Source of the DNA: a virus
Lineage: Duplodnaviria > Caudoviricetes
Direction: 5' to 3' (one strand)
DNA: 39,494 nt
IMG/VR virus record: IMGVR_UViG_3300005805_000194
Span: 1-39,494 of that record
Positions 435 through 26,600 of this stretch are shown here, piece by piece. The position numbers and the translations under genes were made by a program. Below the pieces are notes generated by a model that saw only the letters and a list, made by a program, of their open reading frames with translations, searched no databases and was not told the DNA's origin. The first letter of the stretch is position 1. Every line of letters starts with the position of its first letter.

Positions 435-445
435 TATTTATTCTT
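435..445 (-). promoter_or_regulatory. Late (gp55-type) promoter AAGAATAAATA
   Basis: TAAATA core of the T4 late promoter TATAAATA, 28 nt upstream of ATG 406. The identical 11-mer occurs at 5331-5341 on +. Confidence 0.7.
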
Positions 446-457
446 AATTACCGCTTG

Positions 458-584
458 AACGAGCTAAAGCTCGTTTGCTTTTTCGCGCTTCGCGCTCAAA
501 GCACTTTTCTTTTTTCTTGAATTATCTAAGTTGTGAAAGATATGATATATTTGTGATGACAACTATAAATGCGAAGCATTTTAG
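458..584. other. Cluster of short hairpins including two GCGAAGC mini-hairpins, plus a T-rich tract
   Basis: AACGAGC-TAAA-GCTCGTT at 458-475; GCGC-GAA-GCGC on minus at 485-495, inside TGCTTT/AAAGCA arms; T-tract at about 505-518; AAATGC-GAA-GCATTT on plus at 567-581. Confidence 0.6.
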
Positions 585-650
585 CATTATCTAGATTATT
601 CAGTCACACTTAGCCCAGAGCGGGCTAAGATCTTGTACATTATCTGAGTT
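520..650 (-). repeat. Three dispersed 13-nt repeats AAYYYAGATAATK
   Basis: Minus strand: AACTCAGATAATG (650-638), AATCTAGATAATG (597-585), AACTTAGATAATT (532-520). Confidence 0.6.
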
Positions 651-940
651 ACACAGTACACAATAGCATTACAACATTACAGTGGCGGTCGTCCGGTACC
701 ACGAGTTGCGTCTTAATACGACGGCGGATTACTATACAGATGCTATCCCATATAATAACCGTAGGTTATTAACCTTCTTTTAGCCTTTGGAATTCTTTTT
801 AAACAGCAAAATCAGTTGTATCTAGGCATATCTGATCATGGTCCTGTTAAGGATACTTGCTGAGTGCTTGGTACAGCGCCAAGTCTTCCGTCCCTCTTAT
901 TATCGAGTTAGCGTGGGCACACGTTATTAACCTGTGCTAG
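600..940 (-). ncRNA. Putative large structured non-coding RNA, family unknown; boundaries approximate
   Basis: No ORF of 60 aa or more in the track. Stems at 917-937, 867-883, a three-way junction 804-862 (inner stems 811-836 and 842-853), 763-775, 725-761, 709-723, 682-702, 634-660 and 609-629. The 725-761 stem needs 4 G-U pairs that form only on the minus strand. Confidence 0.6.
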
Positions 941-942
941 TC

Positions 943-1392
943 TTATACTGTTTTGTTACTTGCCTGAAATTTCTTGATTATGTGAGAGCCATGTACACGA
1001 ACCTGTATGTGTCCGTTATACCAATCATTAGATTCTAGTACCTTACGTGCGAATTGCTCGCGAGCCTCTATGTATGAGCATTCTGCTTTGCTTTGACAGT
1101 AAAACAGTATCTCTCTTTTGAAATTATCTACGCCTAACAGTTCGACATCTTTGGTAAGTTCAGGACTGGAACCATAATATGTTTGCCAATCTGAATCAAC
1201 TTTGCTGCGAACCTTCTTTTTCTTTTTCGTGCCGTTTTTTAGTTTATGAACTTTATAGGTAGTACGTCTAAATTTTGCTAATTTTTTGCCTATGTACTTG
1301 CGGGTTGAGGTGAGATTAGTGATTATGTAAACAAAACCTACACAATCTTCAGGTAATTCTTCAACTAATTGATCTTCATAATACCACGACAT
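943..1392 (-). CDS. Stand-alone GIY-YIG (Seg-like) endonuclease-domain protein
   Basis: GFVYIITN...KYIGKK motif, then YYGSS, FKREIL, conserved E (YIEARE) and N (WYNGHI). The track start at 1395 is TTG; ATG at 1392, overlapping the upstream TGA (TGATG), is more likely. Confidence 0.85.
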   Translation of the reverse strand: MSWYYEDQLVEELPEDCVGFVYIITNLTSTRKYIGKKLAKFRRTTYKVHKLKNGTKKKKKVRSKVDSDWQTYYGSSPELTKDVELLGVDNFKREILFYCQSKAECSYIEAREQFARKVLESNDWYNGHIQVRVHGSHIIKKFQASNKTV

Positions 1393-1622
1393 CAACTAGT
1401 TATCTTTGGTGGTCTCCCCAATTTGCCTTTTCTGGCTAACTTTCTTGATTCTCGTTTTGCCTGTATTTCCATTCGCCTAGATGATGCTAGATTGCGTATT
1501 TCTGATAGCCAATACCGTGCCTTAATGCCTGCTTCATCTGAGCCTTTATATTCAAAACGTTCTTGCCATTTAAAATACTGCTGAAACGCTTCGATCATTT
1601 TATCATGTGATTCTGTGGTCAT
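1392..1622 (-). CDS. Small basic protein, Hc1 (histone H1-like) family-like DNA-binding protein
   Basis: FEYKGSDEAGIKARYWLSEIRNLASSRRMEIQ resembles the KG..AAG.RAR..L.E......RR.E pattern of Hc1-like proteins. Basic tail; translationally coupled on both sides. Confidence 0.6.
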   Translation of the reverse strand: MTTESHDKMIEAFQQYFKWQERFEYKGSDEAGIKARYWLSEIRNLASSRRMEIQAKRESRKLARKGKLGRPPKITS

Positions 1623-3397
1623 TCTACAATGTCGATATCGTTGGAATAACTAGTAAAGCCATTCTCTTTAATAACTTTTAACACGTGATTTACACGACTG
1701 GTCAAGTCATCTCTGTGTGAAATCAAGAATACATTCTTGTCACGCTCACGTGTCATGCGTTTTAATACCGCAATACTTGATTCAACACCACTGGCATCCA
1801 TGCCCGAATCTACTAATTCGTCAATGAACAGCAAGTTGATGCTATGATATAGATTCTCCCAAACATCACGGAATGCCCAACTCATAGATAATATCAATCT
1901 ATTACGTTCGCCTCGACTTAGATTATCAAAATCTAGGTCTTGTCCCAACTGTGTAATGATAACACTTAGATCATTTTGGAATTCAACAATGTGAGGTAAT
2001 CCAATCTTATCCAAGTAATATGTCAAACGCTGATTCAAGAATGCCAAGTTCTGGTCAATAATACGTTTACGTACAAATGAATCTTTGTTTGTTAGTAATT
2101 TGTATAAGAATTCTTGATGATCTTTAACACGCATCAATGCGTTTACATGATCCCAAGTGATTTCTTGTACTGCGCTGTTTTTTAAATCATTGATCTGTTC
2201 AAGATATGGATTAGTCTCTGCTTGTTTAGCAGCCAACTCTTTCTCAAGCCCTTCAACTGTACTACGATGATTTAATGCTTCTTCGAGCGTATCGTATATA
2301 GTCCTAGGAGCATCGCCTAAATCACCCAATATAACTTTGGCTTCTTTGAGTTCAACTAACTGTGTATTGGTCGTTAACCATTGAGCAGACGCTTCCTGCT
2401 TGGCAGTTTCTTTGACAGCCAAAACTTCTTCATGTTTACTGTCATGTAAGTCTTGTCCACAAGCATAACACTTGTGATCTTTGAGATCTGCGATTTCTTT
2501 TTCTAGTTTATCGATCTCTTTTTGTTCACGTGTCTGATCAAGATCAGCACGAGCAATGGCCTTGTCAACGTCTTGTATATCTTTTTTCTTAGTATTATAT
2601 TCCACCAACAACTTGTGTGCGGAAATTTCTTCATCTATATTGATATTGCTTAATCCCAAGATGCCACGTTTAAGTTCGTCAATGTTTTTCTCTTTGCTTT
2701 CATCCCAAAGTTGTTGCTTACGGATCAGCGAATCAATACTTTGTTGTATACGATCGTTACTGGCCTTAACAGTTTCAATGCGAGTATTTTCTGTTGATAT
2801 AGAATCTTTAGTTAAACGTAATTGTTCTTTGAGTGCTTCTGCTTTTTCACTAAGCAATGTAATACCTAATAACTGTTCAATGATTGAACGTTGATCATTA
2901 GGCTTTAATGCTAAGAATGGTTCTGTATAAGTGTTCAATGCCACAAGATGTTTAAACATCTCATGACTCATGCCGATCATTTCTTCAATGGCTTTTTGCG
3001 TTTCGCGGCTGTCACCTTGCGATTCATCAAGGTCTTCTAACTCTTGTTCTTGACCGTTGATACTAAACTTTAATAAGTTAGGTTTGCGCCCACGTTCAAT
3101 GTGATATTCAACACCATCCTTTTCAAAGGTCACAGTGACCAACATGGCCTTGCTGTTGATTTTGTTGATCAAATTGTCACGTTTGATATTAGTTAAAGCC
3201 TGGCCGTAGATAGCATAACTCAACCCGTTGATGATAGTAGTCTTACCTGTGCCGTTTCTAGCACCAGAATCGTCACCACCTAAGTCTAAGTTCTCACCTA
3301 AGACCAATGTTAGTTGACCTTTGTCAAAGTCAATGGCCTGGGTTTGATTACCCACGCTCATAAAATTACGTACAGTTAGATTCTTGATTTTTATCAT
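1619..3397 (-). CDS. gp46: Recombination endonuclease ATPase subunit (gp46, SbcC/Rad50-like)
   Basis: Walker A NGTGKTT, coiled coils with zinc hook CYAC, signature LSRGE, Walker B LLFIDE, D-loop, H-loop ISH. Adjacent to gp47. Confidence 0.95.
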   Translation of the reverse strand: MIKIKNLTVRNFMSVGNQTQAIDFDKGQLTLVLGENLDLGGDDSGARNGTGKTTIINGLSYAIYGQALTNIKRDNLINKINSKAMLVTVTFEKDGVEYHIERGRKPNLLKFSINGQEQELEDLDESQGDSRETQKAIEEMIGMSHEMFKHLVALNTYTEPFLALKPNDQRSIIEQLLGITLLSEKAEALKEQLRLTKDSISTENTRIETVKASNDRIQQSIDSLIRKQQLWDESKEKNIDELKRGILGLSNINIDEEISAHKLLVEYNTKKKDIQDVDKAIARADLDQTREQKEIDKLEKEIADLKDHKCYACGQDLHDSKHEEVLAVKETAKQEASAQWLTTNTQLVELKEAKVILGDLGDAPRTIYDTLEEALNHRSTVEGLEKELAAKQAETNPYLEQINDLKNSAVQEITWDHVNALMRVKDHQEFLYKLLTNKDSFVRKRIIDQNLAFLNQRLTYYLDKIGLPHIVEFQNDLSVIITQLGQDLDFDNLSRGERNRLILSMSWAFRDVWENLYHSINLLFIDELVDSGMDASGVESSIAVLKRMTRERDKNVFLISHRDDLTSRVNHVLKVIKENGFTSYSNDIDIVE

Positions 3398-4404
3398 AGA
3401 TTTTGATAGATATCCAATAGCATTGATTTGTCGTAGGTATCACTTTCGATTGCGTTGATCTGATTCATAACAATAGTGTCAACACTTTCAAAAGTAATAT
3501 CGATAGGAGTTGCTTGACTATCAACTTGTACCTTCTCTGGTATCAACATCAATTCACGCAGATCATATTGCGGCATGAACGTTTCTTTAATAAAGTTCGC
3601 TTCTTCAAAACTAATAGGCAGGTCAATAGTAACCCTAGCGTGCATCTTGGGTTTCAATAACCCTTCTGGATTATCAATGATCTGACTTAACTTGAATGTG
3701 CGATACACGGGTTGATCAGGCCAAGTATGATACTCTGGCTTACCACCCCATTCTAAAATCATCATGCCGCGATCATCATCACCTGCATCTGCATAGTTGT
3801 GAGGAAACGCATTACCAATATAAGTTACATTGCCTTTGCTTTGACGTTTATGGAAGTGACCACTAAACACGTACTCTTGGTTTACAAAGTGATCACCTTG
3901 TAGTTGTCCGTGATCTGGCATCTGTACCATAGCATTCATGTAGAATAATGGTAATTCTAAATGTCCAAACACATAGCGACTTTTGATCTTAGATACTTGT
4001 CGCCATTCTTCACCTACTAACCAAGGCATAATAGTTACATCGCCTTCTGTAAGTGTTTCTCTAATTGGCACAATATTTGGAAACAATCGCATAAACTCAA
4101 TTGAGTTGATTTCACGTTTGTCTTTGTAGAACAAATCGTGATTGCCTAAAATGAAGTATACTTTTTCAAAAGTTTCATTCAGCCGTTCTAGATTACTAAC
4201 AGTATAATTCATAGTACTAACGTCAGTAGTCGAACGATTGTGATGCCAATCGCCTAGAAAGATCGCGGTTTTACATCCATTGGCTTTGGCAGTTTCGCAA
4301 AACCATTTGACAAACTCTTCGCAATCATAATTGTGTACTCTACTTCCTGACTTTAATCCAAAGTGGATGTCAGTGAAACAGGCTACTTTTTTGAATAGAC
4401 TCAT
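3394..4404 (-). CDS. gp47: Recombination endonuclease nuclease subunit (gp47, SbcD/Mre11-like)
   Basis: Metallophosphoesterase motifs DIHFG, LGDWHHNR, GNHD, GHLEL, SGHFH. ATGA overlap with gp46. Confidence 0.95.
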   Translation of the reverse strand: MSLFKKVACFTDIHFGLKSGSRVHNYDCEEFVKWFCETAKANGCKTAIFLGDWHHNRSTTDVSTMNYTVSNLERLNETFEKVYFILGNHDLFYKDKREINSIEFMRLFPNIVPIRETLTEGDVTIMPWLVGEEWRQVSKIKSRYVFGHLELPLFYMNAMVQMPDHGQLQGDHFVNQEYVFSGHFHKRQSKGNVTYIGNAFPHNYADAGDDDRGMMILEWGGKPEYHTWPDQPVYRTFKLSQIIDNPEGLLKPKMHARVTIDLPISFEEANFIKETFMPQYDLRELMLIPEKVQVDSQATPIDITFESVDTIVMNQINAIESDTYDKSMLLDIYQNL

Positions 4405-4410
4405 AGTTTT

Positions 4411-4439
4411 ATTGTAATATCTCTTAAGTTAAAAATCAA
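4411..4439 (-). promoter_or_regulatory. Sigma70-type promoter for the gp47 operon, probably leaderless
   Basis: TTGATT (4439-4434), 17-nt spacer, TACAAT (4416-4411), then 6 nt to the ATG at 4404. Confidence 0.6.
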
Positions 4440-5287
4440 TCAAAGTCACCACCATCACCGGTTTTTGGTAAACCGACGGTGGGCCCTGTACCTGTACCTG
4501 AATTTTGACGAGTCCAACTAGGAGTCATACCATTCATTTCTAATATATCATCTCGGATATTTTGATTGCGTTTTTCAATATTGATAATTCTAACAAAACT
4601 GTTAGTAACTGCTGCGGTATAGTAAGCGAATGGGTTATCTGATTTTGATTCATCAAATTGTAACCCTATTTGTGTTAGTTGTAAAATAGCCTGTCCTTTC
4701 ATCTCATCATTGTATGTATATCCGCGAACGTTACCTCTGGTGGCATATCGATCACACAATTTTAAGAACATACGTGCTAGATTGTCGGTCATTTGACCAT
4801 GTTCTTTATTGAACTCACCTGTGTCTAAAGCACCTTTCCAGTGACTCTTGCCCACACAGAATAAGTTACCTTTGTCATCAAACTTCCAGTGTTGGAAAGG
4901 AGGAAAGTTAACTTTTTCGTGACTGTCAGCAGTATTTTTAAGAGTTTTCTTACGACCCGGTGCTAAAGGAACATGCTCAAAGGTCATAACACGGAAAATT
5001 AAGTCCTCTTTGTTCATCTTTTTATAGTCAATTTCAAAATCTTTAGCAGGTAACTTTTTACCACCCGCAATCATTGCAGCTTCGTGTGCTTCTTTTGATA
5101 GTCTAGCAGCACGATTTCTCTTGGCTTCTGCTATGGTTCTTACGTTAAGTTTTTCAAGGCTACTAACGATTAAATCGTAGTTTGAATATGCTTTGTCCAA
5201 AAAAGAACAGTAAGTATTTTTGCTTCTATGGATCTCTTTTAATAGATCTTTATTGGTGAGGTACTTTATTTTCGGTATTAGTGTCAT
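4436..5287 (-). CDS. gp55: Late transcription sigma factor (gp55-like), enlarged
   Basis: YLTNKDLLKEI N-terminus and GYTYNDEM...FDESKSDNPFAYYT...NSFVRIINIEKR core. AGGAG RBS; T4-like gene order 55-47-46. Confidence 0.88.
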   Translation of the reverse strand: MTLIPKIKYLTNKDLLKEIHRSKNTYCSFLDKAYSNYDLIVSSLEKLNVRTIAEAKRNRAARLSKEAHEAAMIAGGKKLPAKDFEIDYKKMNKEDLIFRVMTFEHVPLAPGRKKTLKNTADSHEKVNFPPFQHWKFDDKGNLFCVGKSHWKGALDTGEFNKEHGQMTDNLARMFLKLCDRYATRGNVRGYTYNDEMKGQAILQLTQIGLQFDESKSDNPFAYYTAAVTNSFVRIINIEKRNQNIRDDILEMNGMTPSWTRQNSGTGTGPTVGLPKTGDGGDFD

Positions 5288-11253: not shown

Positions 11254-14200
11254 ATGACCACTACAAGTAGACAAAATAACCTAATACTCAACGAAGATTG
11301 GACTCGTATCTATCAGACATTTAAGAATGCTGATTTTAAATCATACGATTTTGAAAATTTACGTCGAGTAATTATTGCATATCTAAGAGAAAATTATCCT
11401 GAAGATTTCAATGACTATATTGAATCATCAGAATACATGGCTCTCATCGATGCTATTTCATTTTTAGGTCAAAGTTTAGCTTTCCGTTTAGATCTAGCTT
11501 CGAGAGAAAACTTTTTAGAATTAGCAGAACGTAAAGAATCTGTCTTACGTTTAGCTCGTATGTTGAGCTATAATGCTAAACGAAATGTATCAGCCAGCGG
11601 GTTACTTAAATTTTCTACGATATCAACAACCGAGCCGTTAACAGACAGCAATGGCAAAAATTTAGCCAATCAAATAATCCAGTGGAACGACCCAACTAAT
11701 ACCAATTGGCTAGAGCAGTTTATTACTGTATTAAATTCTGCTATGGCTGACAATACAGAATTTGGTCGTAGTCAAGGTAATTCTACTATTCAAGGCATTC
11801 CTACAGAACAATATAGATTCCGTACTACATCACAAGATGTTCCAATTTTCACATTTAGTAAAACTGTTGCTGGTCGAGGAATGGTATTTGAAATAGTTTC
11901 AACGTCATTTAAAGGCAGCGAATCAATATATGAAGAACCACCTGTACCTGGAAATCAATTAGGATTTGTCTATAGAAATGATGGTAGCGGTCCTGGATCC
12001 CCAAACACAGGATTCTATCTATTATTCAAGCAAGGATCATTAGAGCTTGCAGATTTTTCAGTGGAAGTTCCAACTACCAATGAAAAAGTTTCTGTAGACA
12101 GTTCTAATATTAATAATGATGATGTCTGGCTATTTAAATTAGGATCTGAAGGCACACAACAAGATCAATGGACTAAGGTATCAAATCTTATTGGTAATAA
12201 TATTGCTTACAATAGCTTATCACAAAATATTAGAAATATTTTTGCCGTTCAAACAGAAGAAGATGATCGAATTGATTTAGTGTTTGCTGATGGAGTATAT
12301 GGTAATTTACCACAAGGAGCATTCCGTGTTTACTATAGAGTAAGTAACGGTCTATCATATACTATCGCACCAAACGAGTTACGTGGTATTAATATTTCTG
12401 TTCCTTATGTTAATAAATCTGGAAGTGAACAAACTGTAACTATCGGCCTAGCATTACAAACAAGTATAGCATCTAGTGCTACCAGTGAAGATATTGACAC
12501 GATACGAGTTAATGCTCCGGCACAATATTATACACAGAATAGAATGATCACAGGAGAGGATTACAATCTTGCTCCATTGACAAGTTCACAAAATATTTTA
12601 AAAATTAAAGCAGTCAATAGAACATCGAGTGGTATTTCTCGAAACTTTGAAATTATTGACGCCAGTGGAAAATATTCTAGTGTGAATGTCTTTGCTGACG
12701 ACGGATATGTTTACAAAGAAGAATTAGAATCTCAAATTAATTTCAAATACAGCAGTAGAGTTGATGTAGTTAATACTATTAGAAATCTAATAGAACCTGT
12801 ATTCACAGAAAAAGATGTTTACAATTTTTATCTCACAAAATTTGATAAGGTACTTTTTACAGATGAGAATTCTGTATGGCAACAAAATACTTCAGATATT
12901 AATATAACCACAGGGTATTTTAAGAATATAGTTGATAATTCTCTATTAAAAGTAGGATCATATTCTACTAGTTCGTTAAAATATCTTTCATTTGGGGCAT
13001 TAATTAAATTTGTTCCACCAGCAGGATATGCCTTTAAGAAAGGTAAGTTAGTAGTTGCTAATTCAACAGATGCTGATCAAACAGATAGAATTTGGACCAA
13101 GGTTATCAAGGTTGTAGGCGACGGTACAAATGCAGGACGTGGAGCATTGCCCAGCGGATTAGGTCCTATCACATTCAATGATGTAGTACCGAGTGGTGCT
13201 ATAGCTAAACGTATTGTTCCTAAATTTGTAACAGATTTACCAGCATCTCTTGAAACAGAAATTGTTAATCAAATTATACAAAATCTTAATTTCGGATTAA
13301 GATATGATGTAGTTACTTCATCTTGGAATATTATCACAGCTTCGAATCTTAACTTAACAGATTCATTCAATCTCGGTAAAGAAGGCGACACAAGTAATGT
13401 TAATCTTGACTCATCATGGATGTTTGCCTTTATTAAAGAAGTCGATCAATATGTTGTAAGAACAAGAAAATTAAGTTATCGATTTGGTAGTGTGGAACAA
13501 AATAGATTTTATTTTGATACCTCTGAAAAACAATATAATGATCAATTAGGTAAAGTTGTTAAAGATCATGTTAAAGTTTTAGGAATTAACACAGCCAGCG
13601 ACGGTGTAAATCTTTTAAGAAACGAATTTTCATTTGAAATTTATGACACGATTAAATTTGAAGATGGATATGAAAGTTCAGTTGAAATTGAGGTAGCATT
13701 CTCTGATTCAGATGACGACGGAGTTGTAGATAATCCAGAATCTTTTGAACAGATAGTAGGAGAAGATACAGAATTAAATTATCTATTTTTCCAAACAGTT
13801 ACAGATGCTGCTGGTGAAATAACAACCACATTAATTGACAGCGATACAGTTAAAATATATCAATTAGAATCACAAGTGAATATTAATGATGAAGTAGACG
13901 GACAATTATTATATTTCTATGACATTAATGAAGATAGAGTTAAGAGAGTAAACAAAACTACAAATACTTTAGATTTAGAAACAGAATATAAAGGGGTAAT
14001 TGGTAGAGACGGATTAAAATTCCAATACACACATAATGCCAATGCAGATCGAAGAATAGATCCAAGTGTGAGTAATATCATTGATGTATATCTATTAACA
14101 AGAAGTTATGATGATGCATTTAGAGTATATCTGGCAGGTGGTACTTTAGTTGAACCAATAGCACCGTCTAGCGACAATCTAAGAATTACATTTGGTACAA

Positions 14201-14650: not shown

Positions 14651-17600
14651 ATGGCCAATGATAAATTTCCTAAAAGTGGACTACCGATAAGAAAAACGGT
14701 TGATCTATTACCGGCAACTTTTAGAACAGAAACCAATGACAAATTTATGTCTGCGGTTGTTGATCCATTAGTTCAGCCCGGTGTTCTAGAAAAAACTGTA
14801 GGATACATTGGTCGTAGATTTGGTAAAACATATGGCGGTACTGACGTCTATCTAGATTCAGACGAAACACTTAGAAGTAGATATCAGCTTGAACCAGCTG
14901 TAGTTATCAAGGATAACAATGGTAATATAGATAAACTTTACGACTATATTGATTTTAAAAATCAATTAAAATTCTTTGGCAACAATGTAGAACGTGACGA
15001 TTTAACCACAGCACAAGAACATTTTGCATGGAACCCACCGAAACACTGTGACAAATATGTTAACTTTCTTGAATGCTATTGGATACCAGAAGGTCCCCCT
15101 CCTGTTGATGTATTTGGGCAATCTGATAAAATAGTCACCCAATACCAAGTAACATTAGGAGCTACTGGCAATTCTTATATTTTCTCTCCTGATGGTTTCA
15201 CTAATAATCCTACACTAACTTTCTATAGAGGAGCAACCTATAAATTTAGAGTTATCTGTCCTCAAGAAGGATTAGTGATTAGATCAAATTATGATACAGG
15301 ATCGTTATTATTAAATCCAAATAGAGCATATCAGCCGGGCGAGTTAGCAGTTTACGATAACAAACTTTGGAAAGCCAAAGTATTTGTTGCCCCAGGTGAC
15401 GGCAGCAGTATTGATGCAGATAGTCAAGATTGGGAATTTGTTGAAGATGCTACTTCTACTTCAGTTTTAGATTACAACGATGGCGTAACCAACAATGGTG
15501 TAGAAAATGGATTTATGGATTTCACAGTTCCATACAATGCTCCCGATGTTCTTTATTATCAAAGTAAAGTTACACCTGATAGATTTGGTCGTATCATCAT
15601 TGCTGACATAGAATCAAATACATTTGTAGATGTTGAAAAAGAAATTATTGGTAAAGCGACATACACCAGCGGTAACGGTATTAAATTCACTACAGGTCTC
15701 ATAGTTGAGTTTAAAGGTAATGTAACTCCTAAGAAATATGCTAAAGGTCGATGGGTAATTGAAAACGTAGGGGCTCAAATAAATGTAGTCAATTGGGACG
15801 ATCTAATAATTCCGAGATTGGCCAAAGATGTTCCTGAAGTAACATTTGACGATGGTGGATTTGATACCGGACCATTTGATGATGCTACAGCATACCCGTC
15901 AGAGAAAGACTATTTGATAATTAGTCGTGACAGTATCGATCTTAATCCTTGGACCAGATATAATCGTTGGTTCCATCGAGCTGTATTAGATTACGCTTAC
16001 GGAATTCGCGGTCAAGAATTTACAGCACCAGAAGAGGCAAGAGCAAAAAGACCAATTTACGAATTCTTAGCAGGTCTACAATTATTCAATCATGGTAGAA
16101 TTGCCAAAGAGACTGTTGATTATATTGATACCTATACAGATGACGTGCTTTCTAAAATTGAAGGCAGTGGGGGATATAGTGTTGACGGTCAGGAATTATT
16201 TGAAGGCGCAAGACTTTTAGTAGTAGCAGACACTGATACCTTAACCAATAATAAAATTTATGAAGTACAATTTATATTACATAACGGTAGAACACAAATC
16301 CATCTAGCTGAAACAGAAGACACTGTTTCTAAAGAAGGCGAGTGTGTACTGATACGTCGAGGCAACACTAATCAAGGGTTGATGTATCATTTTAACGGCA
16401 CAGCTTGGGTTAAGAGTCAAGAAAAAACTAAGGTAAATCAACCTCCGTTATTTGATGTTTATGATGAAGATGGTGTAAGTTTTTCAGATACTACCAAATA
16501 TCCAGATTCTACATTTGCTGGATCTGAAATCGTTGGCTATAAAGTCAATCCTAATGGAGTACCGGATCCCGAATTAGGAATTCCATTAACATTTCTTAAT
16601 ATTGATAATATTGGTGACGTTGTACAACATTTTAATTGGGACACTGATACATTCACATATAGAGATGGTAATAACGTAATCACTAAACGTATTGCTACAG
16701 GATACTATTATCTAGATCCAACAGGCGGATACGGTGGGTGGGGTAATGGATGGACACCGTTGTCATCGAAATATACAATGCCAATCCTAGACAGTGTGAA
16801 AATCACTTCCTCAACTAATACCTTTACTATTGATACAGTTGATTGGAGTCTTTTGCCAAATGATGATGAATTTGCGATTCGATTCTATTTGAATGGAATT
16901 ATTTACAAAGGGCCATATGTTAGAGATCAAGGAACATTTACCTTTACTGAAAAAACATTTAAAGAAAACGATATCATAACTATAAAGGTAGTTGCCGACA
17001 TAGAACCAAAATCTGGTTATTATCAGATACCATTAGGATTAGAAAAGAATCCATTAAATGCACCGGTGGCACAATGGACACTAGGTCAAGCAGCCGATCA
17101 TTTGAATTCTGGTTTAGATTTCAATCCTTATTGGACTGGCGTAGTTCCTGGCCTTAACGATCTACGAGATATTCCTTTTGATGAGTTCGGTCAACCGTGG
17201 AATACTTATAGTACTCGTTATCTACATCATTCTGGAATTACACCATTAGCGATTACTTTATTATGCGACAAAACAACTAATATTGTTAAATCTCTTCAAT
17301 ATGCTAAAAAATCATATACAGATTTTAAAAATAATTTTGTAGCAAAAGCTATAGAGTTACCATACAATGAAAATATCGCTAATTTTGTTGATGATATTAT
17401 TTCTAATTTAAGCAGAACAAAAAATACTAACAGTCCATTTGCTGACAGCGATATGATCGGTAGCGGAGCATACACAGCTATCAAGTATACAGTTGAAGAT
17501 ACCGGTATTAAAACGTTTGCATTGTCTGAAAGATTTGTATTAGATGAATTAAGTCGTCGTGCGGTATATGTTTATCTAAACGGAACACAATTATTGCATG

Positions 17601-20600
17601 CGAAAGATTATGAATTTAATGGAATATTTGGTTTCGTAAATATTCTTAAATCATTAAATGAAAATGATCTAATAGAAATTAGAGAATACGTTTCGACAGC
17701 ATCTTGTCATATTCCTCCTACACCTTCAACATTAGGATTGTATAAAAAATATACTCCTATGAAATTTGTTGATGATACATATCGAGAACCTAAAGAAGTA
17801 ATACAAGGGCATGACGGTAGTATTACTATCGCTTACGGTGACTTCCGAGACGATTTATTATTAGAATTAGAATACAGAATTTACAATAATATCAAACAAG
17901 AATATAATGCCAAAGTGTTTGATATTGATGTAACAGTCGGCGGATACTACGGTAATGCGTTGTTTAACAAAGACGAATTAAATGATGTAATAAATCCAGA
18001 ATTTTTAAAATGGGTTCAAAATACAAATATCAATTATACACTAAATGAATATTTTGTAGAATACGAACCGTTCACTTATACCTATAGTAACATGTCAGAC
18101 CCGACTGGCACACAAAACTTGCCAGGATGGTGGAGAGGAGTGTACAGATGGTTCTACGATACAGATCGTCCACATCGTTGTCCATGGGAGATGTTAGGTT
18201 TTACAGAACAACCAACATGGTGGGAAGCTACTTATGGAGCGGCTCCGTATACCAGCAACAATTTGATTCTATGGGAAGATCTACGTGATGGGTATGTTCG
18301 TCAAGGTACACGAGCAGGTCGTTATGATAGATATAAACGTCCATCTCTGATGAGTCATTTGCCTGTTGACGCTGATGGTAAATTGTTAAGTCCTTTAGAT
18401 TCTGGGCTAGCTAGAGATTTTGTTTTATTAAACAATCGAGGTTCATTTACATTAGGTGATGTATCACCGGTAGAATATGCTTGGAGATCAAGTTCAGAGT
18501 GGCCATTTGCTATGGCTATTGCGATGTGTTTATTAAAACCATTTGACTTTATCGCTAATAGTTTTGATAGATACTCAACTGTAAAAAATAAATTAAATCA
18601 GACTATCAATAAGACCACAGGAACATTCGTTACCCTTGAAGATCTTATTGTTCCTGATACAACTGGAGAACAGACCGCCGGACTAGTAAACTATTTGGTT
18701 AGTTATATTAAATCTAAAAATTTATCTTTAGATATTTTAAATAAAAATATTAAAAATCTTTCAGTTCAACTATCGACAAGATTAAGTGGATTTGTAGATA
18801 AAGAACAACAAAAATATCTATTAGATACTAAGAGCCCCAAATCAGCAACCAGTGGAATTTTTATTCCACCGGAAAACTATGACATTGTATTCAATGTTAG
18901 TTCCCCTGTTAAGAGCTTAACCTATAGTGGGGTATTATTAGAAAAAACCGAAGGTGGGTGGATAACTAACGGATATGATGATGTATTACCATATTTTGGT
19001 TATTATGAACCATTAGTCAGCCAAGGAGATCCTTTAATCTCAGTTGGCGGAGTAAGTGAAAACTTTGTCGAATGGGAATCAGAATATAGATATTCTAACG
19101 GTCAGATAGTTTTATATAAAAATGATTTTTATAGAGCAAACATAACACATCAAAGCTCGACAGAATTTGTTTTAGCCAATTGGAAAAAATTACCTAAGTT
19201 ACCACTAACTGGTGCGGTTGAAGCATTTAAGAGAAGAGAATTTAACAAGACTCGAATTAAAAAATTAAGTTATGGTTCTAAGTTAACAACACTACAACAG
19301 GTAGTTGATTTCTTATTAGGATATGAAGAATACCTTAAAGATCAAGGATTTATTTTTGACAATTATGATACAGAAAATCAAGTAAGTCAAGACTGGACTA
19401 CAAGTTGTAAAGAATTTATGTATTGGACCAAACACAATTGGGCATTAGGTTCGATAATAGCATTAAGCCCAGCAGCAGAAAAAGTACATGCATCTGTTAC
19501 AGTTGGTGTGGCAGAAAACATCATCGATGGATTCTATGACTATCAGGTTCTTAAAGATGATGGAAAACCTTTACCGGTTGCAAATATCAATGTTAATAGA
19601 ACATTCCAGAATATCACCATTGAAACTACAAATACAACAGAAGGTATATATTTCATTAAACTTTACTATGTTCTTAAAGAACACATTACAGTATTTGATG
19701 ATATCACAGTGTTTAATGATGTTATCTATGATAAGCCAACAGGATATAGACAAGATCGTATTAAATCAGTTGGATTCCGCACAATAGATTGGGACGGCGA
19801 CTATACCAGCCCAGGATTCTTGTTTGATAATGTAAACATACAAGTATGGCAACCATTTACGGATTATAGATTAGGTGACATCGTTTCATATAGAAGCTAT
19901 AATTGGACCAGCTTGAAAAATCAATTAGGCACGGAAGAATTTGATGATACCAAATGGACCAAACTAGATTCAACACCAACAAAACAATTAGTTCCTAATT
20001 TTGATTATAGAATTAATCTAATTGAAGATTATTATGATATTACTTCAGACGGTATTGGCGTAACAACGACTGCATTATCACGCCATGCAACTGGATATCA
20101 ATCGAGACTATATTTAGAAAATCTTTCTGAAGATATGGTAACACAGTATCAACTCTATCAAGGATTTATCCGAGAGAAAGGTACTAACAATGCTATTACT
20201 AAAGTATTCAATAAACTCAGTCGCGCAGAGGATGCAGCCGTTGTTTTAAAAGAAGAATGGGCTTTCCGAGTTGGTAGATTGGGCGGTGTTAATCAGTTAA
20301 GAGAAATTGAATTCACAATTGATAAAGATGAATTCCAGTTAAATCCTCAACCTGTATTAATTTCTACAACAATACCGAGTGTCACTATTGATCAGTATTA
20401 TAGAATTAATGAAGCAGGATTTACAATTAAACCTATTCCTTATGATGTGAATATAAATCCAACATCGGCAGATGCAGAGCCAACTAAAACTGCTGGATAT
20501 GTTAAACTTGATCAGGTTGAATTTATTGTAAAAACTAGAGATGACATTTTAAATTTAGATATTTCTGAATTTTATGAAAATGATCATGTGTGGATAACAT

Positions 20601-23600
20601 TCGATTCATTCACATGGAACGTTTTAAGATTAAATGAATCTCCAGTATTAACTATTGTAAGTCTTTCAAGATCTGGTACAGACGTAGTTATTGCACTTAA
20701 TAGAAGACATGACTTCGTTGTAGATGATATTATTGGTATTAAAAATGTATTGAATTTAACTGGATTCTTCAAGATAACATCAGTCGGGTTAGAAACAGTA
20801 ACAGTTAAAATAGCATCAACGACCCAGGATCCTCAACTAGACGATAGTACAGTTACAAATGTACATCTGTTTACAGAAACACGATTTGCATCGTATGGTG
20901 CACTAGATCCTCAAGAAGCAGCACTATTACCAAACGGATCTAGAATTTATATTGATAATAATGGTTCAGATCTTTGGGAAGTAATTAAAAAGAAAAAACA
21001 ATATTCTGGAAAAAATATTGTACAATACGGAACATCTGCTCCTTTATACACTGGGACAGAAGTAGTTTGGAATGATAAACTTAAACAAGCATTAGTAGGT
21101 ATTCCAGGAACTGGATATGTAATGGCATACCTAGAAACAGAAGCTGGATTATCACTAAGACAAATTATTGCTCCAGAACCTGGTCTTGAATCAAATGTTA
21201 TTGGATCATTCGGATCAGCGATAGCAGTAAGTCCTGACAGTAGATTTTTAATAATTGGTGCTCCGGGAGCAAGCGGAATTGAGAGTGATTATCAAGGTGA
21301 TTACAGTCCGATTCGAAGTTACCTTGTTGGCGATATTGTATTGTACGCTGGAAAATTATGGAAAGCGGTTAAAGATACAGTCGGTGATGGTAGTACTGTA
21401 AATGTTTATACAGAAGATTGGGAACCAGCAGTTTCAATCCCAGCCTTTTCTTCAGGACGAAGCACTGGTGACACAAGTCAGGGCATGATCTCAATATACG
21501 AGTGGTCAAATCAGCAATGGGAAATTAAAAATTCTTTTGTTAGCCCTCGCCCAGCAAACAATGAACAATTTGGTTCTGACATAACAATAGGCGTTAGCGG
21601 CACAACTTATTACATGGCAGTATCTGCAAAAGGATCTTTAGAAAATCGAGGTAGAGTATATCTATATGTTTACGACGGTATAGAATGGAAACATCTAGAA
21701 AATCAAAATTACAGAGGAATATATGCCCCTGCTGGAACATACAATCCGATAACCGGAGTATACAATCCGGTCGGTACAACTTTCTATCCACAAGAGTCTG
21801 TAGTATGGTGGGATTCTGCACTTTGGGAAGCACAAGCAGATAATTACGCCGACGGTAGTACATTAAGTATTGATTCTGCTGATTGGAAAAAATTAGATCC
21901 TATTTCTACTCAATGTTCTTTACCACAAAATATTTCATTAAACGACGACGGTTCGACATTGGCAATGGGATTATTAAATCCTAATCAGTTGGCCGAATTA
22001 GTTAAACAAGGTGATCAGTTTGGTCATAGTTTAACAATGAGTCGAGATGGCAATATTCTTGTTGTTGGTTCTCCTAATAGTGATTCTCAATATTTTGCAA
22101 ATTACAAAGGAATATGGAGACCAGATATTGAATATGTCGAAGGAGATGTTGTTAGATATGTTGATCCTTCATTCGTTACTCCTGGATTTGATTCTCAAGA
22201 AGACAGAATGTATTCTTACTATCGATTAGATCAAAGACTTGGCGATCCTGCTGATTCAACAACTAGAAGTTACAACGAACTTCCAGATGCCGGCACACCT
22301 TGGATTAATATCGGAGATAGTTCATCATTGCCATCAGGAAAAGTTTATATCTATCAACGTTCGACCTATGGTACATATGAACTTAAACAGACTATTAATG
22401 CTGATTCATTACCGGAAATCAATGATCTTGATTCTGGAAATACTATAATTAATTCTGGAGATCAATTTGGTTGGGCGTTAGACATTGATTATTCTGGAAC
22501 ATCTTTAGTGGTGTCAAGTCCTCGATCAGATATTAATTTACAAAATCAAGGAAGTGCTTATATATTCCGCACTGACGGGTTTGCTGAACCACAATATAGA
22601 TTAAAACAAAAATTAGAAAGTTTTGAAAGATTTCCTAATGAATATTTCGGTCAAAGTGTAAGCATCACCCCTGGTGCTGAAAAAATTGTAATAGGTGCTA
22701 AAAATAGTCCGTTTGTATTTTTAACAAGATTTGATACGGTATTAGGCACAACTTTTGATCAAGGTAGAACTCGATTCTCCGATATCCAAGGATATGCCGG
22801 CGGTGTGTATGTATTTGAAAATAAAAATGATACATATTTCTTAACAGAAAAATTAGAAACAGATTTATCACCATATGAAAGTTTTGGATATAGTGTTGAT
22901 GCTACAACATCTATAATATTAGTAGGATCTCCTGATTATCAAGAACCAACGATAGAAAATGCTATATTCTCTTTCACCGGACCAAAAATTGGTATGGCGA
23001 GATTGTTTAAAAAATCGGCATCTCTTGATTCTTGGGAAATTTTAGCATCAAGAAATCCTGTGGTTGACATTTCAAAAATCAAAAGCATTGCGATGTACGA
23101 TGATGTGAACAACGTTAAAATACAAGATTTAGATTATGTTGATCAAGCAAAATTAAAAATTTTAAATCCAGCAGAAAAAGAACTTAAATTTAAAACACCA
23201 TATGATCCTGCGGTATATTCTATCGGTACAGATGAATTGATTGTAGATCCAACCCAAGCATGGAAGGAACTGCATGTTGGCGAATTATGGTGGGACATTT
23301 CTAAAGCCAAATGGTTATATTATGAGCAAGGAGATGTAAGTTATAGAACAGGTAACTGGAACACTCTAGCTGAAGGTGCTAGTATTGATGTATATGAATG
23401 GGTACAATCGATATTATTACCAAGCGAATGGGCAGCAGTAGCAGATACCAATGAAGGTGTAGCAGAAGGCATTTCTGGACAACCTTTATATCCTAATGAT
23501 GATGTGTATGCTATTAAAGAATTGTATAATGAAAATACAGGACAATTATCAGGAACACTGTATTACTACTGGGTTAAAAACAAAACTATAGTACCAGAAA

Positions 23601-26600
23601 ATAAAGTAGGTCGCAGTATTTCTGCAGCCACAGTAGCTTCTTATATTAATAATCCTAGCGGAACAGGAATAGCATTTTTATCGATAATTGATGCAGATAA
23701 GTTTTTATTCCATAATGTACATTCAATATTGTCAGTTGATACAGCATCAGTCAATATCCAATATGTTAAAAATGATAGTAGACTAAATCCTATCCATAAC
23801 GAGTATCTATTGTTAACTGAAGGGGTAGCAGATAGTCTTCCTAATGAAAAAATAGAAGCAAAATGGATTGACAGCCTTGCTGGACAAGATGTAGCAGGTA
23901 ATAGAGTTCCCGATCCTAAATTGCCAGCTAAACAGAAATACGGTTTAGAAATAAGACCAAGACAAAGTATGTTTGTTGATAGATTGCCTATTCTTGAAAC
24001 AGTGGTAACAAATATTAATACAGTTTTATCTAAAGAAGCATTTGCTGATACTATTAATTTTACAAATTTAAATTTAGTAGATGAAATACCAAATGAATTA
24101 TTAAATTTATATGACGTCACTGTCGATACCTATGAAGATTTAGTATCAGTAGGAACTACACGTATCAGACAAGCAGTGCTCAGTGTTAATATTATCGACG
24201 GAGAAATTGATACTATTGATGTGGTATCAACCGGTTTTGGATATAAAGTTCCACCGCCAGTAGAATTTGAAGGTGACGGAGTTGGTGCAACAGCTACCGC
24301 CACACTAGATAATCAAGGACGTGTGGTATCGATTACAGTTAATACACGCGGTAAAAAATATACCACAGCGATCGCTAAAATTAGAAATTTTTCAGTATTA
24401 GTTGTTTCTGATTCCACAGCTAGAGATTTTTGGAGCATTTACGCTTGGGATGATGTACGTCAGGTATTTTTCCGTAGTCGATCTCAAGCATATGATACTA
24501 GAAGATACTGGAGTTTAGTAGACTGGTGGAAAGAAGGATATGATCCTACATCAAGAATAACCAGAGAAATTGGAGTAGTATCAGAAGAACAAGAACCAAC
24601 ATTAGGCATTGAAACCGGAGACCTTATACGAGTTAAGGAATTTGCCAGTGGTGGCTGGGCAGTATTTGAAAAACTTGATGTTCCGGAAAATTCAGGATTT
24701 GCAGAACAATGGCTACAGGTTGGTAGACAAAATGGCACATTAAAGATTAGCGAAGATTTGTACAGAATTAATAATGTTGGTGTTGGGTTTGACAACACAT
24801 TGTCATTTGACACAGCGTTGTATGATATTGAAAATTCTTTAGAATTAAGAAATATCCTTAAGGCAGTTAAAGAAGATATTTTCATAGGTGACTATAGAGT
24901 TGAATGGAATCAATTATTCTTTAGTTGTGTTCGTTATTCTTTTGCAGAACAACAATATATTGATTGGGCATTTAAAACAAGTTTCTTAAATGCTACTCAT
25001 AATGTTGGTGCGCTAGAACAAAAATTAAGCTATAAGAACGATAATCTTGAAAGTTTCCAAGAGTACATTAATGAAGTTAAACCTTATAGAACTACAGTAA
25101 GAGAATATGTCAGTAGATATGATACCGTAGAAGACACTCCTACAGTAATGTCGGATTTTGATTCTCCTGCATTTTATTCTGTAAGTGAAGGAAAAATAGT
25201 TCCTGTAACAGCATCAAACGAACAGATAAATTCATATCCGTGGAAGTGGTGGTTAGACTATCAAGGATATTCTATAATATCTATTAAAGTATCAGATCAA
25301 GGATCAGGATATACTTCTGCTCCTACAGTATACATTGAAGGAAATGGAACAGGAGCCACAGCTAGAGCTTATATTTCAAATGGTAAGGTAGCTGGTGTAG
25401 AGATGTTAACTACCGGTTCTGGTTATACTAAACTTCCTACAATATCTTTAGTTGGCGGTAATGCGTCTAATTCTAATAGAGCCACAGCAGTTGCGGTATT
25501 AGGAGAATCGAAAGTAAGAACATTCAATCTATCAATAAAATTTGATAGAGTTTCTAAAACAGGATTCTACACAGAATTTACACAAACAGAAACAATCACT
25601 GCTCCCGGATCTCAAGCAGTCTTTAATTTAACTTATGCACCATCAAGAGATAAGTCTAAGATATCTATTCTTAAAAATGGTTTATTGATGTTAAGTGATG
25701 AATATATTATTAGTCTTTACATATCTACATCAGATACCTACAGTGCATTGAAAGGAAAAGTTACCTTTACAACTCCTCCAGCTAAGGGAGATGTAATCAC
25801 AGTCAATTACGAAAAGAATGATGAATTACTAGACAGTGTCAACAGAATTGAAAAATATTATTCACCCGCAAATGGAATGAAAGGTAAAGATCTTGGCCAA
25901 CTAATGACAGGTATCGACTTTGGTGGCGTACAAATACAAGGCACAACGTTCGATGTTACAGGTGGATGGGATGCTCTTCCTTGGTTTACAGACAATTGGG
26001 ATAGTGTTGAAAGTTCTGCAGATTATTATCATGTATGTGATGGTAGCACAACCAGTGTAATATTACCGTTTACCCCAGCAGATAGTCAGCAGATTACAAT
26101 ATATCTTAAGAGGGCGGGAACTGCGGTCATTCCAAGCATTGATGATTTAGCATATTCTGAATCAATACCAGAATCTGCAACTGTAAGAATCGATGATCCG
26201 TTCTATGATGCAATAGACGATTCTTCAACATCTTCGAATCCAACCGCTCAAATGCCTACATTTATAGGTGACGGTATCAATAAAGAAGTAGTGATTGGGG
26301 CGTATGTACAAACAAATCCCGGAGATATTTTAATATTCCGACCACTTGAAAGTGACGGATCTGTAACTATTACAGATACTAATCTTCTTGATACTAAATT
26401 AAGTGGCGGATCGTTAGCATCGATGAGTGGTGCGTATGCAACAGCCAACGGAACTACAGCAGAAGAGATTAGTATTGACGGTGATAAATTTATCAGTCCA
26501 GATCAAGTTCCTGCACCGGAAGAGAATGTTCCAGGACAAGTTCTTGATAGTTTAAGTATTCGCGTATTTAATAATACACGTAGCGGTGCAGCACCCTTAC

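Follow-up and report, generated by a model that had tools for sequence, protein, structure and literature searches.

The window, by which we mean the whole stretch of DNA analysed here, is a 39.5-kb virus record. Because its relatives reach 345 kb and the sequencing runs that contain its stretch come mainly from lake samples, we assign it to a T4-like freshwater jumbo phage. On the minus strand, genes for a late sigma factor (4436-5287), SbcD/gp47 (3394-4404) and SbcC/gp46 (1619-3397) are followed by a 76-aa ORF (1392-1622), a GIY-YIG nuclease gene (943-1392), a gap of 536 nt and an ORF at 2-406. The plus strand carries long genes from 5369 on, and an ORF of 4641 aa lies amid the virion genes at 14651-28576. 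The gap behind the nuclease gene had been singled out in a preliminary description of this DNA as unusual beside gaps of under 90 nt, and it is: the other 17 gaps between listed ORFs are no longer than 81 nt. Five ATAAATA boxes were found in the window, a motif which we take to be of the T4 late-promoter type from the T4 consensus. As all five stand at gene starts, we read the box as a late promoter; the one at 435-441 (minus strand) precedes ORF 2-406. Neither a TAAATA box nor a sigma-70 promoter above chance was seen in front of the RNA that fills much of the gap, and this RNA is likely transcribed from the upstream gp47-gp46 operon (1392-5287, minus strand).

The nuclease ORF starts with an ATG at 1392 and stops at 945-943. 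Its 149-aa product belongs to the stand-alone SegE-type GIY-YIG nucleases (Pfam SegE_GIY-YIG, PF19835; phrog_447), with a match over residues 4-130 (E 2.4e-32; 112 bits against a cut-off of 25) that leaves no further domain. The protein is therefore, as first described, essentially a GIY-YIG catalytic domain. Only GIY-YIG families match it, and RuvC and HNH domains are not among the matches. A PDB sequence search and Foldseek gave nothing at E <=0.001. The AlphaFold model (pLDDT 79) aligns with the catalytic domain of I-TevI (1ln0; Z 8.1, rmsd 2.7 Å over 82 residues) and with EndoII (Z 5.0). The very basic insert reported after the YIG motif was recovered at residues 36-66 (1195-1287, minus strand), where the model predicts a beta-hairpin; a second subgroup of the protein, with the same RNA, has a shorter basic insert. 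The catalytic set of I-TevI consists of two Tyr, Gly, Arg, Glu and Asn. Among 30 homologues Y22, Y33, G35, E109 and N126 are invariant, and one of the invariant lysines K36, K37 or K40 may stand in for the catalytic arginine.

Like SegE-like members of PF19835/phrog_447 and the stand-alone T4 EndoII (DenA), the window protein is recognised by sequence family and fold, but it differs from its SegE-like relatives in having no C-terminal DNA-binding domain and in its constant position behind gp46. At least 8000 clusters belong to this very large family (every scored candidate passes), and 492 records of cultured phages match it at <60% identity. The stand-alone form with a basic insert is a trait of this family and is not peculiar to the locus. 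In the 80 closest gene-anchored loci (70-95% protein identity) the gene keeps its place behind gp46; this suggests a housekeeping nuclease more than a homing enzyme, and from its position it probably occupies the resolvase slot of the gp47-gp46 operon. In PHROGs and in many GenBank records phrog_447 is labelled 'NAD synthetase', while sequence and fold indicate a nuclease. One locus (L149) has a frame shift near the C-terminus of the nuclease, which then reads into an intact RNA, and the annotation of cyanophage P-HM2 splits the homologous gene region (NC_015284.1:161341-161925) into two short ORFs.

Directly behind the nuclease gene lies a conserved RNA of about 360 nt (~942 to 586, minus strand), with a hairpin tail beyond it. 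Its first stem starts at 937, in agreement with the earlier remark that stems begin five nucleotides past the stop codon. The 5' domain (801-942, minus strand; 142 nt) is Polynucleobacter-1 (Rfam RF01718), whose covariance model is matched in full (positions 1-141 of 141) with 83.2 bits against a cut-off of 37. The core that follows (663-800, minus strand) lies outside Rfam and was worked out from mutual information with APC correction on 126 sequences, pair counts and a helix list. It contains an A-rich linker, a hairpin (776-762), a long stem (761-726), a stem of 710-699 with 685-670, and two pseudoknots, of 746-740 with 669-663 and of 725-718 with 694-685. Both pseudoknots are found by mutual information in the 126 sequences, which share <90% identity.

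Covariation among homologues, proposed earlier as a check, was clear. Among 39 homologues, 36 of the 51 named pairs change on both sides, a count equalled in none of 500 shuffles and compared with 12-17 in slid controls; helices 5 and 11 score low in these counts because alignment gaps shifted their register. In an RNAalifold consensus, 34 of 58 pairs covary. G-U outnumbers A-C at covarying pairs (239 vs 36), which indicates that the structure forms on the sense strand of the gene. The folding energy of the single sequence is not unusual (z -0.79 and -0.57). Thus the highly structured RNA of about 340 nt that had been postulated is borne out by covariation and the two pseudoknots, although its folding energy is ordinary and the element is somewhat longer, about 360 nt, reaching ~586.

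The downstream region is also conserved. In the 80 gene-anchored viral loci, which were not dereplicated, the window gap is matched by nhmmer in 59, mainly over ~380 nt; two more match but end after 102 nt, five have a type II RNA with another 5' domain, five have an RNA of a second family (family B), eight run directly into another ORF without a type I match, and one is too short. The 5' domain is evidently exchangeable, since type II and family B carry other 5' domains. For loci of type II and family B (L026, L030, L071, L203), Rfam at E <=1 gave nothing credible, and blastn found no match for the window RNA or one family B RNA in cultured phages, or for the family B RNA in plasmids. One freshwater metatranscriptome yielded a single contig of 198 nt at 635-832 and nothing else in 2 kb, which hints weakly at expression of the RNA. 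The nuclease gene is absent from the metatranscriptome contigs of X20, to which we attach no weight as evidence.

The 3' end of the RNA has a two-fold repeated layout, GTGR, spacer and box, twice. Copy 1 of this twin box (ACTC + AGATAAT) lies at 639-649 and copy 2 (ATCT + AGATAAT), where the conserved RNA ends, at 586-596, with a hairpin at 609-627 between them (all minus strand). The 7-mers are the same, and the sequence just upstream of them differs, ACTC in copy 1 and ATCT in copy 2. Beyond copy 2 the template strand carries a GCGAAGC (GNA-triloop) mini-hairpin (567-581, plus strand), followed by an AT-rich tail with more short hairpins (456-566), a candidate unwinding element; the GC content is 0.32-0.37 at 401-700. 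Mini-hairpins with a GNA triloop are stable as DNA. Hairpins with GNA or GNNA loops occur within 130 nt after copy 2 in 86 of 94 loci, compared with 2 of 94 coding control stretches.

Identity between the two 7-mers is strict. In homologues parsed with a pattern that restricted letters but did not force identity (129 sequences examined), the two copies are identical in 128 of 128, in 11 forms (shuffle mean 28.8, max 46). One locus (L083) has lost copy 1 and the hairpin, and another (L092) appears to be without the whole twin tail. At least 53 changes of the 7-mer can be placed on a tree built from the rest of the RNA, also between close relatives. Family B has the same tail: among sequences gathered with two patterns, 130 cores could be parsed, of which 125 have identical 7-mers (79 on average and at most 90 in shuffles), and the 20 remaining cores share a string of 7-12 nt. 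Four single G/A mismatches (L295, L307, L493 and L501; about two events) all have the G in copy 1, which would give a tolerated rG-dT pair if copy 1 of the RNA paired with the template strand of copy 2. The reverse complement of the 7-mer occurs at no fixed place in the RNA or the flanks of the loci, and within the loci the variant of each locus is neither clearly enriched nor depleted. In two 345-kb genomes, inverted pairs and 13-nt matches revealed nothing specific, the 13-nt boxes having one match outside the element, with one mismatch. No column of the GIY-YIG alignment tracks the 7-mer beyond shuffles. With strict twin identity, no RNA partner and no matching change in the nuclease, the template DNA strand is the obvious common complement.

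Elements with a similar anatomy are present in cultured jumbo phages. In PA5oct, PBECO4, Phosso and XbC2, a largely ORF-free gap of 0.8-1.5 kb separates gp46 from the baseplate hub, and in three of the four it adjoins a divergent gene annotated as EndoVII or resolvase; Salicola SCTP-2 has no such gap between these genes. A search with the XbC2 gap hits 255 places in 61 records. There are five copies in XbC2 and four in PBECO4; within each genome they all lie on the same strand at even intervals (p 0.002 and 0.048). Copies lie at 28.9, 94.7, 175.1, 259.3 and 339.0 kb in OP292654.1 and at 38.1, 93.8, 195.3 and 305.2 kb in NC_027364.1. The element, which is structured and multi-copy in phages of the Asterius, Mimas and Eneladus types, is unannotated and outside Rfam; in some records small hypothetical ORFs are called across it. 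Paired CCGT...ACCCGC arms that resemble the type I pseudoknot are present in all 13 copies examined, and so is twin CGTCAG or CGTCAA around a hairpin, a comparison that covers only the last base and two variants. Paralogues inside one phage all share one box variant. Profile HMM cross-searches between the type I core and the core of the cultured phages gave no hit, the family B profile touches only the tail of the window element (E 0.003), and Rfam at E <=1 gave nothing credible on four of the cultured-phage regions. The cultured-phage element is thus a look-alike of the window RNA by position, short pseudoknot pattern and anatomy, not a proven homologue.

Whether the RNA serves the nuclease was judged from their association. 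Where an RNA-anchored locus extends far enough upstream, a GIY-YIG gene is usually found there: in 71 of 74 loci, and for family B in 69 of 75 and in 52 of 54; these sets overlap with the 80 gene-anchored loci and with one another. Within these jumbo phages the RNA is tightly linked to the nuclease gene, though not obligatorily. In four loci with incomplete records (L092, L100, L358, L366) a PD-(D/E)xK nuclease replaces GIY-YIG, and a PF19835 search of three RNA-only records gave no match. The gene in turn occurs without the RNA in 8 of the 80 loci anchored on it, in a record of 130 kb, 80% complete, that has no type I, family B or RF01718 match, and in six of six cultured phages examined, in whose annotated records the next gene starts <=150 nt away and leaves no room for such an RNA. 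In four type I loci another ORF of 230-1040 nt separates the two, and up to 1.3 kb of other genes may do so. Recurrent ORFs of 69-89 aa, some with CxxC, lie between nuclease gene and RNA in L069, L264, L280, L303 and L327.

The preliminary description had proposed that the RNA may supply the nuclease with specificity or a scaffold, by analogy with IscB/TnpB and omega-RNA. Like OMEGA systems, the locus combines a small nuclease gene with a large pseudoknotted RNA behind it, but the nuclease fold is GIY-YIG instead of RuvC/HNH, the RNA has no variable end free to act as a guide, transposon ends and a transposase are absent, and RNA and gene are separable. The guide-like variable end that had been suggested is missing on both sides, the 5' flank being the end of the gene and the 3' flank the conserved hairpin tail, and the boxes gave no outside target in the two 345-kb genomes. 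Proteins with 92-94% identity carry different RNA families (type I or B), and mapped on the protein tree the choice of RNA family must change 23 times or more, compared with a mean of 69 after shuffling. Identity of the nuclease does not track that of the RNA (rho 0.00 with the 5' half, 0.13 with the 3' half; gp46 identity against the 3' half gives rho 0.38), and by these sequence comparisons RNA and nuclease show no co-divergence. Co-occurrence largely holds within the phages and breaks down in islands and small elements, which have the RNA without the gene. Since each occurs alone (the RNA in 17 island copies, in small elements and beside PD-(D/E)xK genes) and nearly identical nucleases have different RNA families, a dedicated guide or scaffold is not supported. 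Of the three outcomes that the preliminary description had named as refuting its idea, one, the independent occurrence of the RNA, is observed.

A narrower version would make copy 1 a short guide with which the neighbouring nuclease, GIY-YIG here or a resolvase in relatives, nicks or cuts its own DNA at copy 2. The cut would start recombination-dependent or rolling-circle replication or packaging, and islands would borrow the enzyme of a helper. This requires the same twin identity as is observed, it would explain the upstream GIY-YIG gene and its frequent replacement by another nuclease, and the basic beta-hairpin could bind nucleic acid. We consider it unlikely: the RNA families are exchanged on the protein tree, the gene exists without the RNA and may be separated from it by other genes, and PF19835 has no match in the five cultured genomes with look-alikes, while the same search was positive in G004 and G005. 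Slightly less probable still is the specific form in which GIY-YIG itself cuts copy 2 to fire an origin, with island and mini-phage parasites hijacking it in trans through an RNA placed behind a phage late promoter.

Two further kinds of carrier have the RNA without the GIY-YIG gene. In the genus Polynucleobacter (that of G011), 18 of 151 genomes have RF01718 above its cut-off; across the class of G051 it was found in 1 of 151 genomes, G051 itself. Ten of the loci in Polynucleobacter were viewed, and eight are islands and two are phage contigs with a GIY-YIG gene. In 17 island copies the Polynucleobacter-1 5' domain is kept, the middle part is different and the same ACTC/ATCT twin tail follows, with identical 7-mers in 11 of 16 complete copies (shuffle mean 2.9, max 10). 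No GIY-YIG hit was obtained in the 5-18 kb around each of the 17 copies. The islands encode integrases, DUF6641 and a homologue of the T4-type clamp loader (E 1e-19), and all 17 copies have a TAAATA box 54-88 nt upstream of the module, which only 2 of 98 phage loci share. The islands are likely phage satellites. The islands L487-L503, of about 10 kb with two tyrosine recombinases, are candidate satellites of these jumbo phages, and also encode small MK(L/I)xEI proteins like the phage's own. Among 17 other DUF6641 loci the twin module was present only in the one already known, and no DUF6641 relatives were found among viral contigs. The second kind are small elements (L269, L284, L327; G014, G015) in which family B lies directly upstream of terminase-like genes with no GIY-YIG gene nearby; a TAAATA box precedes the module in L284 and L327. 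The small elements also encode HNH-like and tail-fibre-like proteins, have TAAATA boxes before several genes, and are possibly satellites with their own packaging motor.

The position upstream of terminase-like genes, with a late box in two of the three elements, would suit a packaging module, either a prohead-type RNA or an RNA-marked pac site. In the jumbo phages the module ends the gp47-gp46 operon and rarely has a late box in front. In PA5oct (NC_071039.1), moreover, 120 nt from the 5' part of the gap (12900-13029) recur at 246155-246276 with 83% identity, inside ncRNA004 (246116-246734; PMC7318152). The share of ncRNA004 in phage reads is given there as 0.08, 0.03 and 0.02% early, middle and late, so that this paralogue peaks early. 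A packaging RNA also leaves the twin identity unexplained, and we regard this role as quite improbable.

The two copies might instead be twin binding sites, in RNA or DNA, for a dimeric phage protein, the RNA being a scaffold or regulator acting in trans. The two-fold layout of the 3' end fits, as does the single box variant shared by the paralogues of one cultured genome. It is hard to reconcile with at least 53 box changes, in none of which one copy alone has changed among 128 cases, and with a box identity as strict as that of the RNA's own essential base pairs. A different protein variant would be required for every one of the 11 very different forms, and for those of family B as well; in GIY-YIG, the one protein compared, no corresponding change was seen. 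We think such sites improbable, to about the degree of the self-directed cut in its general form. A template for reiterative reverse transcription, with a telomerase- or DRT2-like jump between the copies, would need exact direct repeats, and the pseudoknot does adjoin them. RVT_1, however, was found in none of five phage records (three of them >=90% complete), with the control positive in 3 of 14 genomes, and no reverse transcriptase lies beside any locus viewed, which makes this very improbable indeed. A group I intron core, an HDV-like ribozyme, a tmRNA tag, a K-turn or box C/D motif, T-box codons and type III toxin-antitoxin repeats were dropped after comparison by eye with the known features of each.

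The reading we favour, at about even confidence, is that the RNA is a cis-acting origin primer of the ColE1 RNA II kind, with the GIY-YIG gene as an operon neighbour and not a dedicated partner. While the transcript folds, its copy 1 would anneal, behind RNA polymerase, to the template strand of the DNA at copy 2 and seed a persistent R-loop that extends into the AT-rich tail. The leading strand would be primed from the RNA 3' end or from an RNase H cut, and helicase and primase would be loaded by the displaced strand and its hairpins. With the module placed behind a phage late promoter, islands and small elements would borrow the helper's replisome. The nuclease, judging by its position, which in relatives belongs to a resolvase, would likely act on branched DNA. 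An RNase H gene adjoins the gap in phage Phosso, and in L092 one lies upstream. The hairpin tail, the satellite-like carriers with a clamp loader and the evenly spaced look-alikes seem to us a better fit to an origin than to a guide. The AT-rich stretch, the mini-hairpins behind the RNA in most loci, and a look-alike gap at the same gene position in cultured jumbo phages, point the same way.

Several observations count against a primer. ACTC and ATCT before the 7-mer would make the hybrid short or bulged, 5 of 16 island and 5 of 130 family B copies are mismatched, and copy 1 is lost in L083. One box variant per cultured phage also fits a protein-binding site. The GIY-YIG linkage (86 of 89 loci) is tighter than synteny alone requires, and the substitute neighbour is often a nuclease. 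GC/AT skew tracks gene orientation only, with no switch at the RNA, and expression of the RNA is represented by one 198-nt contig.

In ColE1, RNA II forms a persistent hybrid in which an RNA tract is paired with the template strand, and T4 origins such as oriF and oriG combine a promoter and an unwinding element with an R-loop (PMC4412123). As in these systems, a long transcript would pair with its own template and open an AT-rich element, and as T4 has several origins per genome, the look-alikes have 4-5 copies in the two mapped genomes. The window RNA differs from ColE1 in that the pairing unit is a variable twin box of 7-13 nt and not an rG/dC tract, and no equivalent of the antisense RNA I was seen; we claim no sequence likeness.

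The tigRNA of TIGR-Tas, box C/D RNAs and the bridge RNA of IS110 also have a two-part repeated layout, and the bridge RNA covaries by identity with the DNA site of its own element. Unlike these systems, the phage copies have no adjacent Nop-domain or recombinase gene and form no array, and several twin-box variants break the G-A motif that a K-turn requires.

The 5' third of the RNA and the protein family are already known. Polynucleobacter-1 is tabled as a possible cis-regulatory RNA, its role there given as unknown, by Weinberg et al. (2010; PMC2864571). The Rfam model covers 141 of about 360 nt, without the double pseudoknot, the twin box or the DNA hairpins, and the entry does not include the phage and island contexts or the other RNA families with the same tail. 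The supplement of Weinberg et al. 2010 may, reportedly, already mention the gene beside Polynucleobacter-1. The full RNA, the twin box and the spread over phages and islands were not found in print: a literature search, with most subscription journals not covered, returned no paper that deals with the longer RNA, its twin box or a link to the gene, and none that names replication origins for these T4-like jumbo phages.

If the box instead directed a nuclease, a new class of compact RNA-guided enzyme would be at hand, and in the self-targeting form it would be the first RNA-guided GIY-YIG nuclease, reprogrammable via copy 1. If the primer reading is true, it would give a function to an RNA that has been catalogued without one since 2010 and would name the replication origins of a large group of T4-like jumbo phages, for which look-alike elements are available in cultured E. 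coli and Pseudomonas phages. It would also mean that ColE1-like RNA priming exists outside plasmids, with a short, exchangeable pairing code common to phages and their likely parasites.
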